Source: Escherichia virus TH55
Reading direction: 5' to 3' (one strand)
Sequence record: MT446421.1
Length of the DNA: 64,000 nt
Below, in pieces: positions 9,278 to 55,626 of this stretch (its first letter is position 1; each line of letters begins with the position of its first letter). The translations under genes and the position numbers were made by a program. Below the pieces are notes generated by a model. The model was not told the origin of the DNA. It was given only the letters and a program-made list of their open reading frames with translations, and did not search any database.

Positions 9278-9577
9278 TTAGAAAGAACCAGAACCTTTAA
9301 TTGTGTTCTGGCGACCTTTATTTTCTAATTCAGAATGGTCGATTTCGTATGCTTGTGCTACACCAAAGGCCTTTTTAACTTTAGCTAAAGAGCCTTTAGA
9401 TGTGACAATATTAAAAGTATTGCCTTTAGTAAAATCAACCAAATCCACTTGTACACCCTGTTTACCGAGGCTTGCTACAATAGCATCAACATATTGTTGG
9501 TCTAAATTGCCCTGGACTCCGATTTGAAATGCTTTGGGAGCTTTGGCTTCAGTAATAAATTCTTGATAAGTTTTCAT
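9278..9577 (-). CDS. internal-protein-like protein with capsid targeting sequence
   Basis: starts MKTYQEFITE, the T4 IP capsid-targeting leader with L/I-x-E cleavage site; adjacent to denV as ipII/ipIII are in T4. Confidence 0.55.
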   Translation of the reverse strand: MKTYQEFITEAKAPKAFQIGVQGNLDQQYVDAIVASLGKQGVQVDLVDFTKGNTFNIVTSKGSLAKVKKAFGVAQAYEIDHSELENKGRQNTIKGSGSF

Positions 9578-10097: not shown

Positions 10098-10367
10098 TCA
10101 TTTCTTAGAGTATTGACCCATAAGTTTAGCGATATCACCCAATTTCTGATTAAACAAATAATCCACTTCTTTGCCAGATTTATCTACAATTTGCCACTGA
10201 CCATTTCCTTTGTTGCCAAAGGTCCAATCACCGACTTTAAATGAAGTTCCATTAACTTTTTTAATAGAAGTAAACTCAAAGCCTTCTTTCTTAGCTAAAA
10301 ATGCCATGCGGCTTTCATCTGATTCATTTAATACAGATTCAGCCAAAAATTCTTGATACGTTTTCAT
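10098..10367 (-). CDS. internal-protein-like protein with capsid targeting sequence
   Basis: starts MKTYQEFLAE; 89 aa. Confidence 0.55.
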   Translation of the reverse strand: MKTYQEFLAESVLNESDESRMAFLAKKEGFEFTSIKKVNGTSFKVGDWTFGNKGNGQWQIVDKSGKEVDYLFNQKLGDIAKLMGQYSKK

Positions 10368-10375
10368 ATTTTACC

Positions 10376-10867
10376 TTATTTGTATGCGTCAAAAGTTCCG
10401 GTGCGGAAAGTTTCAATAACTCGTTTAGCCCGGTTCGGAGTCTGGACTTTATACCATCTTGAGTCTGCCAGTTCCTTGGCAGCCGCTTCCCATGATTTAG
10501 CCTTCAGCAATCGCATACCCTTAGGAAAACCCGCAACACCAGCAACACCCATCTGGAATACCATATTAATGAGTGCACAACGACGAACTTCATCAAGTAC
10601 ATCATAAACAGGTTTTAAGACAGGATGTCTCAAGATTCCGGCTTTAGCCTTTTCGACCGAACGGTTAAACAGTGTTTCGGCTTCGTGTTGGGTTATACGA
10701 CCATTACAGACGCGACCCATGAGCTTATCGAGCTCGGCGCGAGCAACATCTTTAGATGGGTTCTTAGTTATCAGTTGCCCGATGCCAATGGTCCAATAGC
10801 CTTCAGTATCTTTATACAAATCCAACTTACAACCTTCATCTATGCGTAACATTTCGAATATATTCAT
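10376..10867 (-). CDS. e: endolysin (T4 lysozyme)
   Basis: [12 protein letters not shown]...[13 protein letters not shown]...[12 protein letters not shown]...[22 protein letters not shown] matches T4 lysozyme. Confidence 0.92.
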
Positions 10868-20805: not shown

Positions 20806-21075
20806 TTAAATTACAAATCCAGCGGGAGCATTATCATCTTTAACCATATGCTGAATTGTATGATAAGTCATTTCTTCTGGTGCAACCAGATAAGCCGCAG
20901 TGTTAACCAACGGGATTAATTTGACTTTATTGAATGTTGAACAACCAATTGACATAAAGGTTTCGCCTGTTGGATGCTGAATTTCGCCAAATTGGCACTC
21001 ATACGAAATAGAGCAACGTTTGGTAGTGGTTGTCTTTGTTTTAGGGTCGTAAAAAGCTAATTTTAATACTAACAT
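20806..21075 (-). CDS. hypothetical protein
   Basis: 89-aa ORF. Confidence 0.4.
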   Translation of the reverse strand: MLVLKLAFYDPKTKTTTTKRCSISYECQFGEIQHPTGETFMSIGCSTFNKVKLIPLVNTAAYLVAPEEMTYHTIQHMVKDDNAPAGFVI

Positions 21076-21195
21076 AACACCTCAAATAAAATTAAGTAAA
21101 GTAAGTTTGATTAATAGCACATGCTATTATGAAAGGTTCTTTGAGGGAAGAACCTTTGGTAATAGAGGGTACTTATTAATAATAACGCGTTTTTA

Positions 21196-21678
21196 TTAAA
21201 GCATATCAAGCGCTTTAACAGATGGGATTTGGATTTCTTCTTCGATTATATATAGCTTAACATAAGAAATTACACGCATGAAATCACCATCATTTTCACA
21301 AGCCATGCCTAAAAGTTCGGTCAGGGCTTCATTCAGGTAGTATTCTTCATCATCGCCATTTAGCAATGCATCTAAATCTTCTACACCCAGAACCTTACTT
21401 AAAAATTCATGGGTTAACTGACCAGATTTTACACCAGATGCAATGTAGTCGATAACCAAGTGTTTAACCACATCCCATTCTGAATTACCACATTTGTTGC
21501 GGTTATTGCAATGCGAACCATAGAAAAGTTCCAGGATATATTTGTACTGTTGTATTTCTTGTTCTTCTACACCAAATACAGTCTGGGTTTTATAATTATC
21601 ACCATCATTTTCCCAGGTTTCAATTTCAATCACATAACCTTTAGGGATGGTCTGACCAAATTTGATATTCATTCGCAT
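21196..21678 (-). CDS. hypothetical protein
   Basis: 160-aa ORF. Confidence 0.4.
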   Translation of the reverse strand: MRMNIKFGQTIPKGYVIEIETWENDGDNYKTQTVFGVEEQEIQQYKYILELFYGSHCNNRNKCGNSEWDVVKHLVIDYIASGVKSGQLTHEFLSKVLGVEDLDALLNGDDEEYYLNEALTELLGMACENDGDFMRVISYVKLYIIEEEIQIPSVKALDML

Positions 21679-22058
21679 GTTCCTTCATCAACAATAGTAT
21701 GCGTATTGGCATTAACAATCTGCCACCAGTCAAAACGGTTGGAACCATAACAAGGCTTCTTCTCGTTTTCTTTAATGATATCACGCAGTTCATCTTCAGT
21801 CGCAGCTTTTGCAATTAAGTCAGCATAACCGCCACGAGGATAATAGCTATCACCAGCAAAGAGCAAAAAGTTTGTTTTGATATTCTTGAATTCTTCAAGA
21901 GTAATAACTGTTCCACCCGGTTGAACAATATCCACATAACTATACCCTAATTCCTGGGCTTTATCTACTGCTTCAAGCAGGGTGTCATACGCCCACCCAA
22001 TTTGGCAATCTGATTTTTCAGATGGATTTGCCTGATAATCCGCATACACTTTATACAT
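21669..22058 (-). CDS. hypothetical protein
   Basis: about 129 aa from MYKVYADY; ORF-track N-terminus overlaps upstream gene. Confidence 0.4.
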   Translation of the reverse strand: MYKVYADYQANPSEKSDCQIGWAYDTLLEAVDKAQELGYSYVDIVQPGGTVITLEEFKNIKTNFLLFAGDSYYPRGGYADLIAKAATEDELRDIIKENEKKPCYGSNRFDWWQIVNANTHTIVDEGTCE

Positions 22059-22059
22059 T

Positions 22060-22245
22060 TTACTCACCTTTGGAGATTTTATCCATAACGAAAGAGATTG
22101 AACCAATTAAAAATGCAACTACTAAAGAGATTATATTCTCAGAAGTTGAAAGCATATTCAACATAAAGCCAGCAAACATGCTAAAACCAAAAACGGTAAC
22201 AGCAACAAGGGCAGTAACATTTCTAATTAATTCACAACGTTTCAT
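22060..22245 (-). CDS. small hydrophobic membrane protein
   Basis: 61 aa, two hydrophobic helices, behind family-1 cassette. Confidence 0.4.
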   Translation of the reverse strand: MKRCELIRNVTALVAVTVFGFSMFAGFMLNMLSTSENIISLVVAFLIGSISFVMDKISKGE

Positions 22246-22300
22246 TTTATTCTCCTCAGTAGTTGATGGGATAATTATACGCTATCCCATTCAAAAGTAC
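22246..22300 (-). promoter_or_regulatory. early promoter/hairpin cassette (family 1)
   Basis: coding strand gtgtac...gggata gcg TATAAT tatccc atcaactactgaggagaataaa ATG. Confidence 0.5.
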
Positions 22301-22302
22301 AC

Positions 22303-22557
22303 TTATTTTTTAGGGATACGATAGTAACGCATCTCAACATCTTTCTGCTTGTGCCACTTTTTGATAAGGTCTTCAGAACCTTTAATAGTAACGATGTCAT
22401 AGCGACCATCATGCGATACTTCAGCACTTAACTGCATGAAGTTGTCTAGTGAACGGCGCAATTCCTCATTAGAAAAACTACCACGCGGGGAACCAACATA
22501 AGCAAACTCAACTTTTGCATCTGCGGCTTCGTTAATAAATTCTTGATAAGTTTTCAT
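22303..22557 (-). CDS. internal-protein-like protein with capsid targeting sequence
   Basis: starts MKTYQEFINE; 84 aa. Confidence 0.55.
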   Translation of the reverse strand: MKTYQEFINEAADAKVEFAYVGSPRGSFSNEELRRSLDNFMQLSAEVSHDGRYDIVTIKGSEDLIKKWHKQKDVEMRYYRIPKK

Positions 22558-22612
22558 GTTGTCTCCAGTAGTTGATGAGATAATTATACTGCAGTTATCC
22601 CATCGCGTATAC
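22558..22612 (-). promoter_or_regulatory. early promoter/hairpin cassette (family 1)
   Basis: coding strand ...cagTATAATtatctcatcaactactggagacaac ATG. Confidence 0.45.
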
Positions 22613-22613
22613 T

Positions 22614-22856
22614 TTATTTTAAGTCTTCCAGACGTTTTTTCATCTTGGTGCCATTCTTAGCAATCTCGCCGGCATCAGAACAAAGAGCAAGGAGAGCTTT
22701 AACTTTACCCTGGTCGCCTTTAAAAGATGATGCATCTACTGAATCAGCAAGTTCTTTGATACGTGCAAACAGGCGCTCTGCTTCAGCAAGGGCTTGACCA
22801 AGTTTAACTTCCATACCATGGGAAGATTCTGTTATAAATGTTTGATAAGTTTTCAT
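22614..22856 (-). CDS. internal-protein-like protein with capsid targeting sequence
   Basis: starts MKTYQTFITE; 80 aa. Confidence 0.55.
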   Translation of the reverse strand: MKTYQTFITESSHGMEVKLGQALAEAERLFARIKELADSVDASSFKGDQGKVKALLALCSDAGEIAKNGTKMKKRLEDLK

Positions 22857-22864
22857 TTGAAATC

Positions 22865-23137
22865 CTATTTTAGATAAATTGCATATTTTTTATAACCAGC
22901 CGTCTCATGGCGAAGACCCTTGTCATTGGCAAAACGCTCAATGTTATTAATTTGGTTCTGGTCAAGTTCTGAAATGTCAAACGCAAAAAAGTTGCGTTTG
23001 TTACCAATTGTTATATGGTCAGTTAAGTCAATGCTATACAGGTGATTGATATTGTCAATCATAGCTTTGACTGCTTTACTAATTTTTACTTCTTCATTCA
23101 GTTGTGACTCGTTGAAAAATTCATTGAAAGTTTTCAT
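22865..23137 (-). CDS. internal-protein-like protein with capsid targeting sequence
   Basis: starts MKTFNEFFNE; 90 aa. Confidence 0.5.
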   Translation of the reverse strand: MKTFNEFFNESQLNEEVKISKAVKAMIDNINHLYSIDLTDHITIGNKRNFFAFDISELDQNQINNIERFANDKGLRHETAGYKKYAIYLK

Positions 23138-23145
23138 AAGAAACC

Positions 23146-23478
23146 TTATTTATAAAGTTTTGCCAGTTCTTTACGTCCGCGTGCAGACATAATAAATTGT
23201 TCATCGCCAATTTTAAAATAAGCCATACCGCCGTCAACAGCGATACCAATTTCTTTAGTACCTTCTTTGCCTTTCCACTTGCCACCAGATTTCAGGACAG
23301 CTTCAACTGCAGCTTTGGAATATTTGGACGTTTGAAAACGTTCATTACCAATCTGAAAGAAAACACCATCTGCATTTTTGGTTAAACCAAATTTCAGAGA
23401 GCCTTCACTATCATCAATTGATTTGGTCTCATTGATGGCGGATTCGGCTAAAAACTCGTTGTAAGTTTTGATGTTCAT
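23146..23478 (-). CDS. internal-protein-like protein with capsid targeting sequence
   Basis: starts MNIKTYNEFLAE; 110 aa; position equivalent to T4 ipI. Confidence 0.5.
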   Translation of the reverse strand: MNIKTYNEFLAESAINETKSIDDSEGSLKFGLTKNADGVFFQIGNERFQTSKYSKAAVEAVLKSGGKWKGKEGTKEIGIAVDGGMAYFKIGDEQFIMSARGRKELAKLYK

Positions 23479-23540
23479 ATTGACTCCGTTTGTTCATTCG
23501 TTGGTGTAGGAACATAATACTGCACCTACACTTATTTGTA
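23479..23540 (-). promoter_or_regulatory. early promoter/hairpin cassette (family 1)
   Basis: coding strand GTGTAC...gtgtagg tgcag TATTAT gtt cctacac caacgaatg...ggag...ATG. Confidence 0.45.
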
Positions 23541-23542
23541 CA

Positions 23543-24233
<691 letters not shown>

Positions 24234-24234
<1 letters not shown>

Positions 24235-24911
24235 TATATTACCTTATTAATTTTATCAAAAAGTTCTTCGAGTGTGCCATTGTTTTTAATAACAATGTCA
24301 CTAGCTAGTGGTGGAAGTCCAGCTTCCGTAATGTGTGTATCGGTAGAATGATTTGCTTCATCGCGTTCTACAAAGATTATTGTAGCACCCATCGCCCGAA
24401 GCGAATCAAGTTCGTTCTTTTGACGAACATCTGGGACAACGTAATATTTATATCCAGAATAGAGGTTGTCAAGATAATCGCACGCAAAAGTTTTAATCCA
24501 AAACATGCTGTCGAACTCTGTACAAACGATGTCAGTTCCAAGGGTCTGCATGAAACGTCTAACTGTCCAGGGCTCAACATTATTTAGTGTGTGAAATTCA
24601 ATGATTTTACGAACCATATCTGGATTCGGAAGGTCAAGATTGTATTGTTGTTTCAACCATTCAAGAGCATCAACCAGAAGAATATAAGCTTCGGTGTTGT
24701 TCATTATCAAGGTTTTTTCACGGTCATAACCTTGTCCATCAAAATTTTCCAGGGTCAAATTGTGTGGCAGGTCTTGACGAATCCACGCTTTATAAAGCGC
24801 TTCTTTAATCGGACCTGCAAGCTGCCACTTTGTTCCGTTTTGACTAATAACATAATCAGCAGTCGTATCTTTACCACTGCGTTTTTTACCCACAATCGCA
24901 ATTAATTTCAT
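24234..24911 (-). CDS. 1: deoxynucleoside monophosphate kinase gp1
   Basis: P-loop GKKRSGKDTTAD, ...MGATIIFVER...DTHITEAGLP matches T4 gp1. Confidence 0.88.
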
Positions 24912-25507
24912 ACGTTTCTCATAGATGGATGCATTGACTTAGACCTGATTTCCTGTTGCATTGCTGCATTACTATCAATCTGTGGTCTACCTTCTATTAT
25001 TATACCATCAATTTCTACAGCAAAAGACTTAAAGTTAAAAGTTGCTGTTGCATTGATAGCCGGGTCAGAATCTTCTTTATATGAATACTGAATCTCTGAC
25101 AGGTCGGACGGCCATGCTCCATAGTAATGGATTGACATGACAATTTTGTCCTTGTTGTTATCTAAGATATGAAGCGTGACCGCTTCGGGACGACCCTTCG
25201 GATGCCATGCTTTTGATTCGTGTGTGATGTAGTTGTTGAGCGAGAGCATCCATTTATAAATGTCAAGCCATGCTCTTAGGTCTTTGTCACACAGAAAGTT
25301 AACAATCAGTGGGTCGAATTCTATTGTACTACCAGGAAGACTGGAGCGATTTATACCTTGTGTTCCCCCAGGAACATCTGTCACAGGGATGTGAACACCA
25401 GGGAGGGTAACGTCTTGAACGTTGAGTTTAAAGGTCTGTGTGAGGTTTGAATCGCTTACCTCTAATATAAAGTTAGTCGTGTTAGTTTGATTATATAAAC
25501 CTGACAT
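24908..25507 (-). CDS. 3: tail completion/sheath stabiliser protein gp3 (by position)
   Basis: 199-aa ORF between genes 1 and 2, ATGA coupling to gene 1. Confidence 0.6.
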   Translation of the reverse strand: MSGLYNQTNTTNFILEVSDSNLTQTFKLNVQDVTLPGVHIPVTDVPGGTQGINRSSLPGSTIEFDPLIVNFLCDKDLRAWLDIYKWMLSLNNYITHESKAWHPKGRPEAVTLHILDNNKDKIVMSIHYYGAWPSDLSEIQYSYKEDSDPAINATATFNFKSFAVEIDGIIIEGRPQIDSNAAMQQEIRSKSMHPSMRNV

Positions 25508-25592: not shown

Positions 25593-26267
25593 TTATTTTA
25601 TTAATGTGTTAAGTCTTAGCTTAGTCATAAACGGATAACGTTCCAACATTGGCTTTACCCAGTATCGAGGATGCAATTCCTTTTTATATGCTAAGACCAA
25701 CTCTCGAGCTTGCTCGACGGTATCAACTCCGAAGTTTTTACACATTTCTTGCCTATCTTTTTCCCACCGGCGCTTTCTCAATTCATCCTGAATCTCTTTA
25801 TTTTTAAAATGACCATTATTGCGAGAATGTTTTGTACCCTTGGTTGGACTGTAATGTCTTCCTTTGACAAACCCATCCGGAATATTTTCCCATGGAAATA
25901 GTTTTATCGATTTGACACCATTATTAAAGTAAACTTTACCGGTTTGACTTTTAGAAATATTGTCAGCGTGTCTACGTCTTAACCAACCAAATAATTTATT
26001 ATTGCGTTTCAAATACTTGCTTGACTGGCACATGGATGTAGCAGCAAAACTTAAACCTGGATTTGTAGGATATATTTTAACCAATAGTTGATGGGCTACA
26101 TAATGTTCCTCAGGAGTCAAATCGACCAGATTATCTGGGTCATTTGAACCACCCATACATTTCGGAATGATGTGATGAGATTCTTTATATGAAATCAGGA
26201 CCCTGTTACGGGCCCTTTCAATTAACGATGAATATATAAACTGATAATTCAAAGTGAATTTCTCCAT
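25593..26267 (-). mobile_element. HNH homing endonuclease (Mob-like) inserted between genes 3 and 2
   Basis: 224 aa; HNH core HHIIPKCMGGSNDPDNLVDLTPEEHYVAH; not present at this locus in T4. Confidence 0.7.
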
Positions 26268-27076: not shown

Positions 27077-27522
27077 CCTTTCCATCCTAATTTTTTCAGG
27101 CCGTTTTCGGTTAGAATGCGAAATGTAATACCCATTTTATCTGCGGTAGCTTGTGCAGCTTTCCACTTATCCCTGTTCACAGAATAAGTGTACATTTCGT
27201 TTATATAACGTTTCTTACTGGCTGCTGTATTATTTACAGGAATTTTTGGGGGCTGTGTTTCTTTGAATGGTTTTATTTCAATAAAAAATTGCTGGCCGGT
27301 ATCAAATTTACACCATATATCCATATAGTAACGGCGCTTTTTGCCATCAGCATTGCTAAAATATGGAATAACAACAGTCTCAGAACCCCATTGAACAACA
27401 TTGGGGTGAGTGTCGAGCCACTTGAACATATATGCCTCCCAACTCGACCTGTACTGTATTTTCTTCCAATCACCTTTATATTTTTCTAGATTTGTTGGTT
27501 TAAACTTCCCGGAGTACGCCAT
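27073..27522 (-). CDS. 4: head completion protein gp4 (by position and size)
   Basis: 150 aa from MAYSGKFKP; position between gene 2 and the divergent gene 53 operon. Confidence 0.6.
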
Positions 27523-28207
27523 TTTTAAGTACCTTACAATTTTCACCATGCCAACGTTTATAGTTGCCTGGATTTGTTATTTTTCCACAGTGTTCACAGG
27601 TGTGACGGGGAGCATTTTTATTAAGCTCTGATAAACGTTTTCTGACATCATCAGTAATACCTTGCTTTATTTTCTCGCTATGATTTACCAAAACTCTTTC
27701 TTTATTTGCCTTGGATATTTTTGCTCGCCAATCATCTGTAAACACTCTTTCTGATAATTTCTTACAATGTTCTTCAGAGAACTTTTTACCCTTTGCTGCT
27801 TCTGACAACTTTTTGCAATGCTCTTCAGAGCGCGGGCCATATTTCTTACCTTTAAGAGCTTTTGAAATATTTTCACATGTTTGTTTTGAACGTTTACGTC
27901 CAGTGTGAAACTTAATGGAAGTCTCAACAGCGCGGATGCGCACCCATTCAAATTGTTTGTTATTGTAATTGTTGGAACCCATTAGAATTTTCGCAGCATG
28001 TGCTAACGAGTGATTATCTGGATAAATTTTAACCAATAACAGGTGGGCGACAAAATGTTCAGGAGCGGTAAGCTCGACTAAATTTTCATCAGTATCTAAT
28101 CCGCCCATACATCTTGGAATAATGTGATGTTTCTCTTTGTAACCATCAATGGGTGCTCGATTTTTAGCTCGTTGGATTAAGTTATTGTAATGTTTTAGAT
28201 AGTTCAT
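27500..28207 (-). mobile_element. HNH homing endonuclease (paralog of 25593..26267) between gene 4 and gene 53
   Basis: 235 aa; HNH core HHIIPRCMGGLDTDENLVELTAPEHFVAH; internal repeats GKKYGPRSEEHCKKLSE / GKKFSEEHCKKLSE. Confidence 0.7.
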
Positions 28208-53709: not shown

Positions 53710-54137
53710 TGTTTATTATCCCTGATGATTACGAATTAACTCTTGAAAACATTGAAAGTGTTTCCGAAGAAGCTCAGGGACAATTTGATTCATTATCTGA
53801 AGCCTTAGAAAAAGACGATATAAATATTATTGTAGAAAACATGTTTGCAGCCGGTGAATATGAAAAAGCAACGGTTATCGGCGCGCTGAATGAAGGTGTT
53901 CAGCTTAACGAATTTATCGTTAAACATGTATCGTCTCGCGGTGAGTTAACCCGCACAAAAGACCTAGCTACTCGTAAGCGTAATGCTTTCCAAACAACTG
54001 GTCTTTCTAAAGCTAAACGTCGTCAAATTGCCCGTCTGGCTACTAAAACGAAAAGAGCAAACCCATCTACGCAAATCAGAGCAGAGCGCAAGCGCAAAAA
54101 AGCTCGAGCTAAGCGTAAAGCATTCGGACTTGATTAA
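53709..54137 (+). CDS. 68: prohead core protein gp68
   Basis: 142 aa with basic C-terminus. Confidence 0.8.
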
Positions 54138-54775
54138 TGGAACAGAAACCAGAGTTACTAATCGAACACTGGGGTCAACCGGGCGAAATTAAAGATGGTG
54201 TACCGATGTTGGAATCTCATGACGGTTCCAACAGCGATTTAAAGCCAGGACTTTATATTGAAGGTATTTTCCTACAAGCTGAAGTTGTTAACCGTAATAA
54301 ACGACTTTATCCTAAACATATTTTGGAAAAAGCCGTTGCTGATTATATGGCAGAACAGGTTGCTACTAAACAAGCTTTAGGAGAATTAAATCATCCGCCC
54401 CGTGCTAACGTCGACCCTATGCAAGCCGCTATTATTATTGAAGATATGTGGTGGAAAGGTAATGATGTATATGGTCGCGCGCGCATTATCGAAGGCGACC
54501 ATGGCCCAGGTGATAAACTTGCTGCAAATATAAGAGCAGGTTGGATTCCAGGTGTATCTAGTCGTGGACTTGGTTCCTTGACTAAATCAGCAAAAGGTTA
54601 TAGCATCGTTAATGAAGGTTTTAAATTGACGGTTGGAGTAGATGCAGTATGGGGGCCAAGTGCTCCGGACGCTTGGGTCAAACCAAAGCAGATTACAGAA
54701 TCACAAACGGCAGTTGCCGATACCAGTGCCGATGACGCCTTTATGGCTCTCGCAGAGGCTTTAAAGACGTTATAA
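54137..54775 (+). CDS. 21: prohead core protease gp21
   Basis: 212 aa, same size as T4 gp21. Confidence 0.9.
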   Translation: MEQKPELLIEHWGQPGEIKDGVPMLESHDGSNSDLKPGLYIEGIFLQAEVVNRNKRLYPKHILEKAVADYMAEQVATKQALGELNHPPRANVDPMQAAIIIEDMWWKGNDVYGRARIIEGDHGPGDKLAANIRAGWIPGVSSRGLGSLTKSAKGYSIVNEGFKLTVGVDAVWGPSAPDAWVKPKQITESQTAVADTSADDAFMALAEALKTL

Positions 54776-54807: not shown

Positions 54808-55626
54808 ATGCTTAAAGAACAACTCATTTCTGAAGCTCAGAATATCGATGCTTCCGTTGCTCTCGATAGTATTTTCGAATCAGTTAATTTGTCCCCGGAA
54901 GCGAAAGCTACCTTCGGCACTGTATTCGAAGCTACCGTCAAGCAACACGCCATCAAACTGGCAGAATCTCACATTCACGCCATCGCTGAAAAAGCTGAAG
55001 AAGAAGTCGAAAAGAATAAAGAAGAAGCCGACGAAAAAGCAGAGAAAAAACTGAAAGAATCTGCAGCTAAATTCCTGGACCACGTTGCTAAAGAATGGCT
55101 CGCTGAAAATAAACTGGCTGTCGACCGTGGCATTAAAGCTGACCTGTTCGAATCCATGTTCACCGGCATGAAAGAACTGTTCGTTGAGCACAACGTTGTT
55201 GTTCCAGAAGAATCTGTCGATGTTGTTGCAGAAATGCAGGAAGAACTGGCTGAACAGAAAGAAGAAACCGCTAATCTGTTCGAAGAAGTTGCTAAGCGTG
55301 ATGCTTATATCAATTATGTCCAACGTGAAGTTGCGTTGACTGAAGCGACTAAAGACCTGACTGAATCTCAAAAAGAAAAAGTTGGTTCTCTGGTAGAAGG
55401 CATGGAATACTCTGATGCATTCGGTACCAAAATTGGCGCTATCGTTGAAATGGTTAAAGGTCAGGTAGAACCCACCGACAAACCAATCACCGAAGCCGCT
55501 ATAAATAAAAATGTAGACGATGCTGCGGCACTGAATTACATTTCAGAAGCAGTTGAAGAAAAAGGCGCCAAGCCTACCCTGTCCTTCGCGGACTTGTCTG
55601 CTCTCGCAGCATCACGAATTTCTTAA
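54808..55626 (+). CDS. 22: prohead core scaffold protein gp22
   Basis: 272 aa acidic coiled-coil. Confidence 0.88.
   Translation: MLKEQLISEAQNIDASVALDSIFESVNLSPEAKATFGTVFEATVKQHAIKLAESHIHAIAEKAEEEVEKNKEEADEKAEKKLKESAAKFLDHVAKEWLAENKLAVDRGIKADLFESMFTGMKELFVEHNVVVPEESVDVVAEMQEELAEQKEETANLFEEVAKRDAYINYVQREVALTEATKDLTESQKEKVGSLVEGMEYSDAFGTKIGAIVEMVKGQVEPTDKPITEAAINKNVDDAAALNYISEAVEEKGAKPTLSFADLSALAASRIS
55499..55506 (+). promoter_or_regulatory. possible internal late promoter TATAAATA for gene 23
   Basis: exact TATAAATA inside 3' end of gene 22, about 140 nt before gp23 ATG. Confidence 0.35.

Follow-up and report, generated by a model that had tools for sequence, protein, structure and literature searches.

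What use does a T4-like phage make of a row of small genes that start almost identically and then have nothing further in common? The question is raised by positions 22303–23478 in 64,000 nucleotides (nt) of Escherichia virus TH55 (sequence record MT446421.1), a stretch that we call the window and on which all positions are counted. A preliminary description had reported four consecutive small open reading frames (ORFs) at this place and had quoted their N-termini, and all four are found there on the minus strand. They are listed here with their lengths in amino acids (aa), their first residues and their PHROG families:

22303–22557, minus: ORF1, 84 aa, MKTYQEFINE, divergent Ip6 relative, phrog_8111
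22614–22856, minus: ORF2, 80 aa, MKTYQTFITE, Ip5 family, phrog_3499
22865–23137, minus: ORF3, 90 aa, MKTFNEFFNE, Ip9 family, phrog_7673
23146–23478, minus: ORF4, 110 aa, MNIKTYNEFLAE, internal-protein candidate, phrog_3966

The cluster is very likely a T4-like phage's variable locus for internal-protein (ip) genes, lying at the position that ipI has in T4. Loci of this kind are well known and the finding is mostly ordinary, with three of the four genes in named families. What is new is a 110-aa family of internal proteins, so far unannotated and predicted to have a Whirly/PUR-like fold, together with the atypical leaders of ORF3 and ORF4, the breakpoints placed on the sequence, a rough census of the cargo, and a mismatch between the functional paradigm taken from T4 and the DNA chemistry of the genus. 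The practical gains are modest and include a clean annotation of the ip locus.

Position of the cluster

The order of genes around the cluster is trna.3–trna.4–[four ORFs]–57B–57A–1–3, and the T4 counterpart of the four ORFs is the single gene ipI, which stands between trna.4 and 57B (T4 record). The cluster is therefore located in one of the two ip loci, trna.4–ipI–57B, the other being denV–ipII–ipIII–e. The same window also encodes the gp21 protease and the gp22 scaffolding core protein, as well as the gp23 capsid protein and the gp20 portal. The flanking genes and the two genes whose products are expected to deal with the leader are as follows:

22060–22245, minus: trna.4 homologue, downstream flank (phrog_1692; Trna.4 in VR26; T4 order)
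23543–23998, minus: 57B/Acb1 (anti-CBASS), upstream flank (Pfam Acb1, 1.2e-59; synteny with T4 57B)
54137–54775, plus: gp21 prohead protease, the expected leader-removing enzyme (Pfam Peptidase_S77, 2.1e-101)
54808–55626, plus: gp22 scaffolding core protein, the presumed target of the leader (Pfam T4_CASP, 3.4e-91)

Because the neighbour 57B is Acb1, an anti-CBASS phosphodiesterase, the ip cluster sits beside a known counter-defence gene. In many records Acb1 (57B) is still labelled "RNA ligase".

Positions 21000–25000 match Escherichia phage UPEC07 (MW250787.1; Straboviridae, Tevenvirinae, Gaprivervirus) at 100% identity. The GenBank record of UPEC07 labels two of the four genes "internal head protein" and gives ORF1 and ORF4 as "hypothetical protein", and the annotations of sister genomes name three of the genes, as ip5, ip9 and ip6.

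Leaders and predicted cleavage sites

We described the leader by a pattern (M, 0–2 residues, K, T or S, Y, F or W, any two residues, F, any two residues, E) in ORFs of at least about 40 aa; 6 ORFs of the window match it, against 0 in 400 shuffles. The leaders of T4 read MKTYQEFIAE in both IPII and IPIII and MKTFKEF in IPI (T4 record). An N-terminal capsid-targeting sequence of about 10 residues like MKTYQEFIAE is found directly at the start of three of the four ORFs, and ORF4 matches it after an extension of two residues (MN-IKTYNEFLAE).

At the end of the leader we find, as a motif, the L/I-x-E predicted to be cut by gp21: it reads I-N-E in ORF1, I-T-E in ORF2 and L-A-E in ORF4, where a second I-N-E occupies residues 15–17. 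The preliminary description had given all four ORFs a leader with a gp21 site; at the level of the motif this holds for ORF1, ORF2 and ORF4, but the 10-residue leader of ORF3 closes in F-N-E (residues 8–10) instead, and its canonical motif, L-N-E, comes only at residues 13–15. By analogy, the cut in ORF3 may fall five residues further in, which would resemble the longer leader of IPI. Because IPI has 95 aa and IPI* has 76 residues (PMC3012670), the IPI leader is 19 residues long, ending in I-T-E.

The extension in ORF4 can be traced by comparison with its relatives, all of which start MKTY or MKTF. Judged by these sequences, the ancestral Met codon of ORF4 has become Ile in Gaprivervirus and initiation has shifted two codons upstream. 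A still longer ORF4 start, as annotated in VR26 (MFLHQRTNGVKMNIK...), is rejected because the window has a TGA in frame six codons ahead of the ATG, so that the extension is not conserved. The AlphaFold2 models of ORF3 and ORF4 show the leader as a short helix, followed at the predicted cut site by a segment with a predicted local distance difference test (pLDDT) score below 50, and this modelled arrangement fits an exposed protease site.

In DNA the leader-coding sequence forms a 30-nt direct repeat (family D1) with four copies on the minus strand, 70–83% identical at the DNA level:

22528–22557, minus: D1, reference copy
22827–22856, minus: D1
23108–23137, minus: D1
23443–23472, minus: D1

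Cargo bodies and selection

It had been noted that the bodies behind the leaders are unrelated, and the comparison agrees: once the leaders are stripped, the best BLASTP E value among the four is 5.4, and the four ORFs fall into four different PHROGs. ORF2 belongs to phrog_3499 (internal head protein, 2.4e-41) and has a body identical to ip5 of VR26, with a predicted mature form of 70 aa and an isoelectric point (pI) of 8.8. ORF3, which is ip9 in VR26, belongs to phrog_7673 (internal head protein, 1.7e-56) and shares 79% identity with RB15 Ip9; its AlphaFold2 model (pLDDT 75.8) takes the form of a generic alpha/beta sandwich for which the fold comparison gave no coherent match. ORF1 belongs to phrog_8111 (internal virion protein, 1.6e-15) and is 36% identical to VR26 Ip6 (E 3e-8). 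Copies of ORF1 at 90% identity or more are carried by 14 phage records and Ip6-type relatives below 60% by another 231, but only 3 close clusters were found among 5.8 billion proteins, too few for a useful alignment. By sequence, then, ORF1 is related to Ip6 but divergent and rare.

Compared with the polymorphic ip genes of the T-even phages (Ip5, Ip6 and Ip9), ORF2 is Ip5, ORF3 is Ip9 and ORF1 is a distant relative of Ip6, at most 50% identical to the mainstream of that family. ORF4 differs from the known ip genes in that nearly every record gives its family no internal-protein label. Searches of Pfam and NCBIfam with the bodies returned no family, and a sequence search of the PDB with ORF1 and ORF4 returned no match.

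The four ORFs are genuine genes under purifying selection. Measured against the orthologues in six sister phages, the ratio of nonsynonymous to synonymous polymorphism (pN/pS) is about 0.02–0.03 for the 110-aa protein, Ip9 and Ip5 (about 0.02 for Ip5, ORF2) and about 0.18 for the 84-aa protein. Each of the four is preceded by a ribosome-binding site, and homologues of the ORFs are conserved across genera. Three of the four predicted mature forms are basic, with pI 8.8–9.3, and that of Ip9 (ORF3) is near neutral, with pI 6.8.

Exchange of cassettes

Variable cargo behind a conserved leader had been proposed for this cluster, and we find seven arrangements among seven Gapriverviruses. The 110-aa gene and the Ip9 gene, next to 57B, are common to all seven and nearly identical, whereas the distal cassettes differ:

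UPEC07: Ip5, 84 aa
EAWsc9: 99 aa, Ip5, 84 aa
P8: Ip5, 84 aa, 73 aa
UPEC01: 99 aa, 92 aa, 84 aa
PSD2001: 99 aa, 92 aa
VR25: 99 aa, Ip6
VR26: Ip5, Ip6

The 99-aa protein of EAWsc9, UPEC01, PSD2001 and VR25 has a variant leader, MQTFHEFLVE.

The ends of the exchanged segments could be placed on the window. Homology to VR26 breaks off at 22316 and picks up again at 22511, and therefore only the body of ORF1 has been replaced. EAWsc9 has an insertion whose bounds are at 22843–22856, which are the first 14 nt of a leader. The breakpoint intervals at leader repeats are 22511–22557 and 22843–22856. The extra cassette of P8 is bounded by a 31-nt intergenic repeat, with overlapping homology at 22240–22270. 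From these mapped breakpoints we infer that the leader and the intergenic repeat serve as recombination handles. The intergenic repeat (family D2) has two copies that are 87% identical:

22250–22280, minus: D2, upstream of trna.4
22559–22589, minus: D2, upstream of ORF1

The D2 repeat contains a TATAAT, a stem-loop and a ribosome-binding site, and a stem-loop overlapping a TATAAT-like element is present in the intergenic regions before ORF4, ORF1 and trna.4. In their sequence these repeats resemble PeSL modules, which are promoter/stem-loop cassettes that mediate modular shuffling and are recombination hot spots in T4-like genomes (PMC2839356, PMC4122927). The likeness is one of sequence and consists in the TATAAT-like element with its stem-loop and in the one repeat that flanks an indel between sister phages, but here several breakpoints lie in leader coding sequence and not in intergenic DNA.

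As cited in PMC3012670 and PMC12373910, the idea of variable cargo dates to Repoila et al. 1994, and variable cargo behind a conserved leader, in the form in which those papers cite it, is an exact description of this locus. When IMG/VR was scanned for the DNA pattern of the leader, up to a limit of 80 loci, this gave at least 114 distinct leader-bearing ORFs whose bodies form at least 33 clusters unrelated by BLASTP; the number given in PMC12373910 is "at least 10 reported". The same scan contains two large clusters from uncultured phages, of 137–179 aa, with the leaders MKTYQEFMLE and MKTFKEFLEE.

Comparison with the T4 internal proteins

The T4 leader steers proteins into the scaffolding core, and the proteins are injected with the DNA (PMC3012670, PMC9391042). 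Each of T4 Ip1 (IPI*), Ip2 and Ip3 inhibits one different GmrSD variant, with no cross-protection for Ip2 and Ip3 (PMC12373910). What had been said of T4 beforehand, namely that its internal proteins are packaged and injected and that IPI* blocks a type IV restriction system, GmrSD, agrees with these sources (PMC3012670, PMC12373910).

The cluster is like T4 IPI in its position, in leader type (MKTFKEF in IPI and MKTFNEF in ORF3), in the small size of the proteins and in the accompanying protease and scaffold genes. It is like IPII and IPIII in having a near-identical 10-residue leader, MKTYQEFIAE in those two, and the window has two leader genes at the e/denV locus as well; the differences from IPII and IPIII are the PHROGs, the absence of BLASTP similarity and the gene order around denV. 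None of the four bodies is homologous to T4 IPI, IPII or IPIII, with BLASTP E values above 0.4 for all pairs and different PHROGs, and the IPI* fold was not found. All six leader-bearing proteins of the window, when compared with these three T4 proteins, have no PHROG in common with them and no BLASTP similarity to them.

The DNA chemistry probably differs from that of T4 as well. A tblastn search of the whole UPEC07 record with T4 gp42, a-gt and b-gt found no match, and thus the genes for glycosylated hydroxymethylcytosine (hmC) DNA, the substrate of the enzymes that the T4 proteins inhibit, were not found. The glucosyl-hmC/GmrSD context of T4 is therefore not obviously applicable to UPEC07. 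Gaprivervirus likewise is reported to be without these genes, and an unidentified non-canonical base is suspected (PMC8056088, PMC12115623). Because the bodies are unrelated to Ip1–3 and the hmC genes are missing, a GmrSD target is not to be assumed, and the GmrSD-inhibitor role of the T4 proteins is not carried over to them here. With a full ip set in a genus of unknown DNA chemistry, these proteins are therefore good candidates for targets beyond GmrSD. Despite the missing hmC genes, the annotation of UPEC07 lists DenA, DenB, Alc and a dCTPase, and between imm and uvsX, the position of gene 42 in T4, the phage has a 176-aa ORF without a Pfam match (L010 24507–25037).

The 110-aa protein

ORF4 is assigned to phrog_3966, "unknown function", and is a "hypothetical protein" in nearly all of the 55 phage records that carry it. 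The family comprises 11 clusters at 90% identity. At 50% identity there are six representatives among 1.84 billion proteins, and five of the six are genuine relatives, each with the leader, so that the family is never seen leaderless. Citrobacter and Salmonella phages carry the gene beside that of the endolysin, at the other ip locus, and therefore the cassette has moved between ip loci.

The protein has an internal duplication, with an alignment score of 48 compared with 21 ± 4.4 in shuffles (0 of 2000 reach it). In its AlphaFold model (pLDDT 76.7, predicted template modelling score 0.64; pLDDT 53–67 for the other four models) the leader helix is followed by two beta4-alpha units, and the tandem beta-beta-beta-beta-alpha repeats are predicted to form a Whirly-like fold. 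The predicted mature form has about 98 aa and a pI of 9.3. The Whirly, PUR, MRP1-MRP2 and SsgB proteins share a fold made of beta4-alpha repeats that bind single-stranded nucleic acid; ORF4 differs from them in an identity of only 8–13% and in shorter repeats of about 45 aa, and the confidence of its model is only moderate. ORF4 matches no Pfam family at E values up to 1, including the PUR, Whirly and SsgA families, and a fold search of BFVD turned up no convincing match other than its own homologue. We take ORF4 to be an internal protein and, on the strength of the model, probably a nucleic-acid binder.

Proposed packaging, injection and function

How would such proteins act? They would be made late in infection, and the N-terminal helix of 10–12 residues, the capsid-targeting sequence, would lead to their incorporation into the prohead, in its gp22 scaffolding core. 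Cleavage by the gp21 protease would follow, after the glutamate of the L/I-x-E at the end of the leader, and the small, mostly basic mature proteins (7–11 kDa) would stay in the head with the DNA and be injected. If T4 Ip1, Ip2 and Ip3 are a guide, the proteins, once injected, would most likely neutralise first-line host defences before phage gene expression. The set of cassettes is reshuffled by recombination in the conserved leader and in the intergenic promoter/stem-loop repeats. We consider it highly probable that the four proteins are packaged, processed and injected as in T4, although somewhat less so for ORF4 and ORF3 because their leaders are atypical. A role of the four as counter-defence effectors is plausible, again by analogy, because the distal cassettes are swapped and because Acb1 is a neighbour. 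Injected proteins act before phage gene expression and therefore would help to decide which hosts can be infected.

Several observations weigh against this account. The ORF3 leader does not close in the expected motif, and the ORF4 leader is shifted from the N-terminus by the two residues MN. When the literature was searched for virion proteomics of VR7-like phages, no virion or processing data for the four proteins came to light. All seven Gapriverviruses have the 110-aa gene and Ip9 in invariant form, which fits a housekeeping role as well as a role in an arms race, and the hmC genes that give the T4 inhibitors their context gave no match in UPEC07.

The proteins could be packaged and yet be mainly general DNA-associated head components, serving in charge neutralisation, in DNA organisation or in protection and escort at ejection, and not as specific inhibitors of defences. 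Such a role would suit the basic pI of three of the four mature forms, the predicted Whirly/PUR-like nucleic-acid-binding fold of ORF4, the near identity that Ip9 and the 110-aa gene show across the seven Gapriverviruses (pN/pS about 0.02), and the lysines of T4 internal proteins, which contact DNA phosphates (PMC3012670). It is harder to reconcile with the specific GmrSD target of all three T4 internal proteins tested, with the near-neutral pI of Ip9 and with the swapping of the distal cassettes (Ip5, 84, Ip6, 92, 99 and 73 aa) between very close relatives, which is more typical of accessory counter-defence genes, and we regard it as unlikely while taking it seriously.

The conserved 5′ end could instead be a module for recombination at the DNA level and for translation initiation, with some of the proteins, particularly ORF4 and ORF3, unpackaged and cytoplasmic. 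That the leader is kept at the amino-acid level across synonymous differences and distant phages, that it closes in a protease motif in nearly all cases and that the ORF4 family is never without it all argue against such a module; it is favoured by the cassette breakpoints within leader DNA, by the 70–83% identity of the leader as a DNA repeat, by the loss of the ancestral start codon in ORF4 and by T4 IPIII, a leaderless version of which functions in the cytoplasm of cells that express it (PMC9391042). On balance we find it quite improbable. That the ORFs are decaying remnants or chance ORFs without function might be suspected from their small size, from the lack of a Pfam or NCBIfam family and from the "hypothetical protein" labels of ORF1 and ORF4 in UPEC07, but the strong purifying selection effectively refutes this, and the ribosome-binding sites, the homologues kept across genera and two folded models of sufficient confidence leave it with hardly any credibility.

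Within the preferred account of packaged and injected ip proteins, we tentatively offer a more specific proposal, which is rather unlikely to be right in all its parts. Gapriverviruses lack both the hmC pathway and the three T4 internal proteins. The invariant 110-aa protein might be an injected nucleic-acid binder of Whirly/PUR fold that shields the incoming genome, perhaps one with an unidentified base in it, or that sequesters a nucleic-acid signal, while the distal cassettes that are exchanged, such as Ip5 and the 84-aa gene, might target defences other than GmrSD. If this were true, the mode of action of the 110-aa protein would differ from the protein–protein inhibition known for IPI*.

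Expression signals

Two signals were mapped in and next to the cluster:

23147–23154, minus: TATAAATA, T4 late-promoter consensus, ending 10 nt before the start codon of Ip9 (ORF3)
23504–23531, minus: stem-loop with a 7-bp outer stem over a promoter-like TGTACA-17-TATTAT, between 57B and ORF4 (−13.9 kcal/mol, z −3.25)

The consensus TATAAATA occurs 20 times in the window, where 5 occurrences are expected, and only one copy is within the cluster; a further copy lies upstream of the cluster, inside gene 1. No exact late promoter stands directly before ORF4, ORF2 or ORF1. The sequence TACAAATAAG, one mismatch away from TATAAATA, is found on the minus strand upstream of the 110-aa ORF (23479–23548) and of an 89-aa ORF (10368–10400).

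Other leader-bearing genes

The fifth and sixth leader-bearing ORFs of the window are at the lysozyme e/denV locus:

10098–10367, minus: 89 aa, MKTYQEFLAE, between lysozyme e and denV, phrog_8765
9278–9577, minus: 99 aa, MKTYQEFITE, downstream of denV, phrog_2667 (internal head protein, 8.4e-43)

The order at this locus is IP–denV–IP–e, compared with denV–ipII–ipIII–e in T4. Between the 89-aa protein and ORF4 there is a remote relationship that extends past the leader (hhalign probability 92%).

Two ORFs annotated as homing endonucleases, at 25593–26267 (minus) and at about 27500–28207 (minus), lie among genes 3, 2 and 4; T4 has no homing endonuclease where its gene 3 adjoins gene 2. A leader-like N-terminus, MKTFKDFINE, is also present outside the window, in a 55-aa ORF without a Pfam match at 158551–158718 of the UPEC07 record (L010 30452–30619, plus); it is far from both ip loci and is annotated as a "major capsid domain-containing protein".

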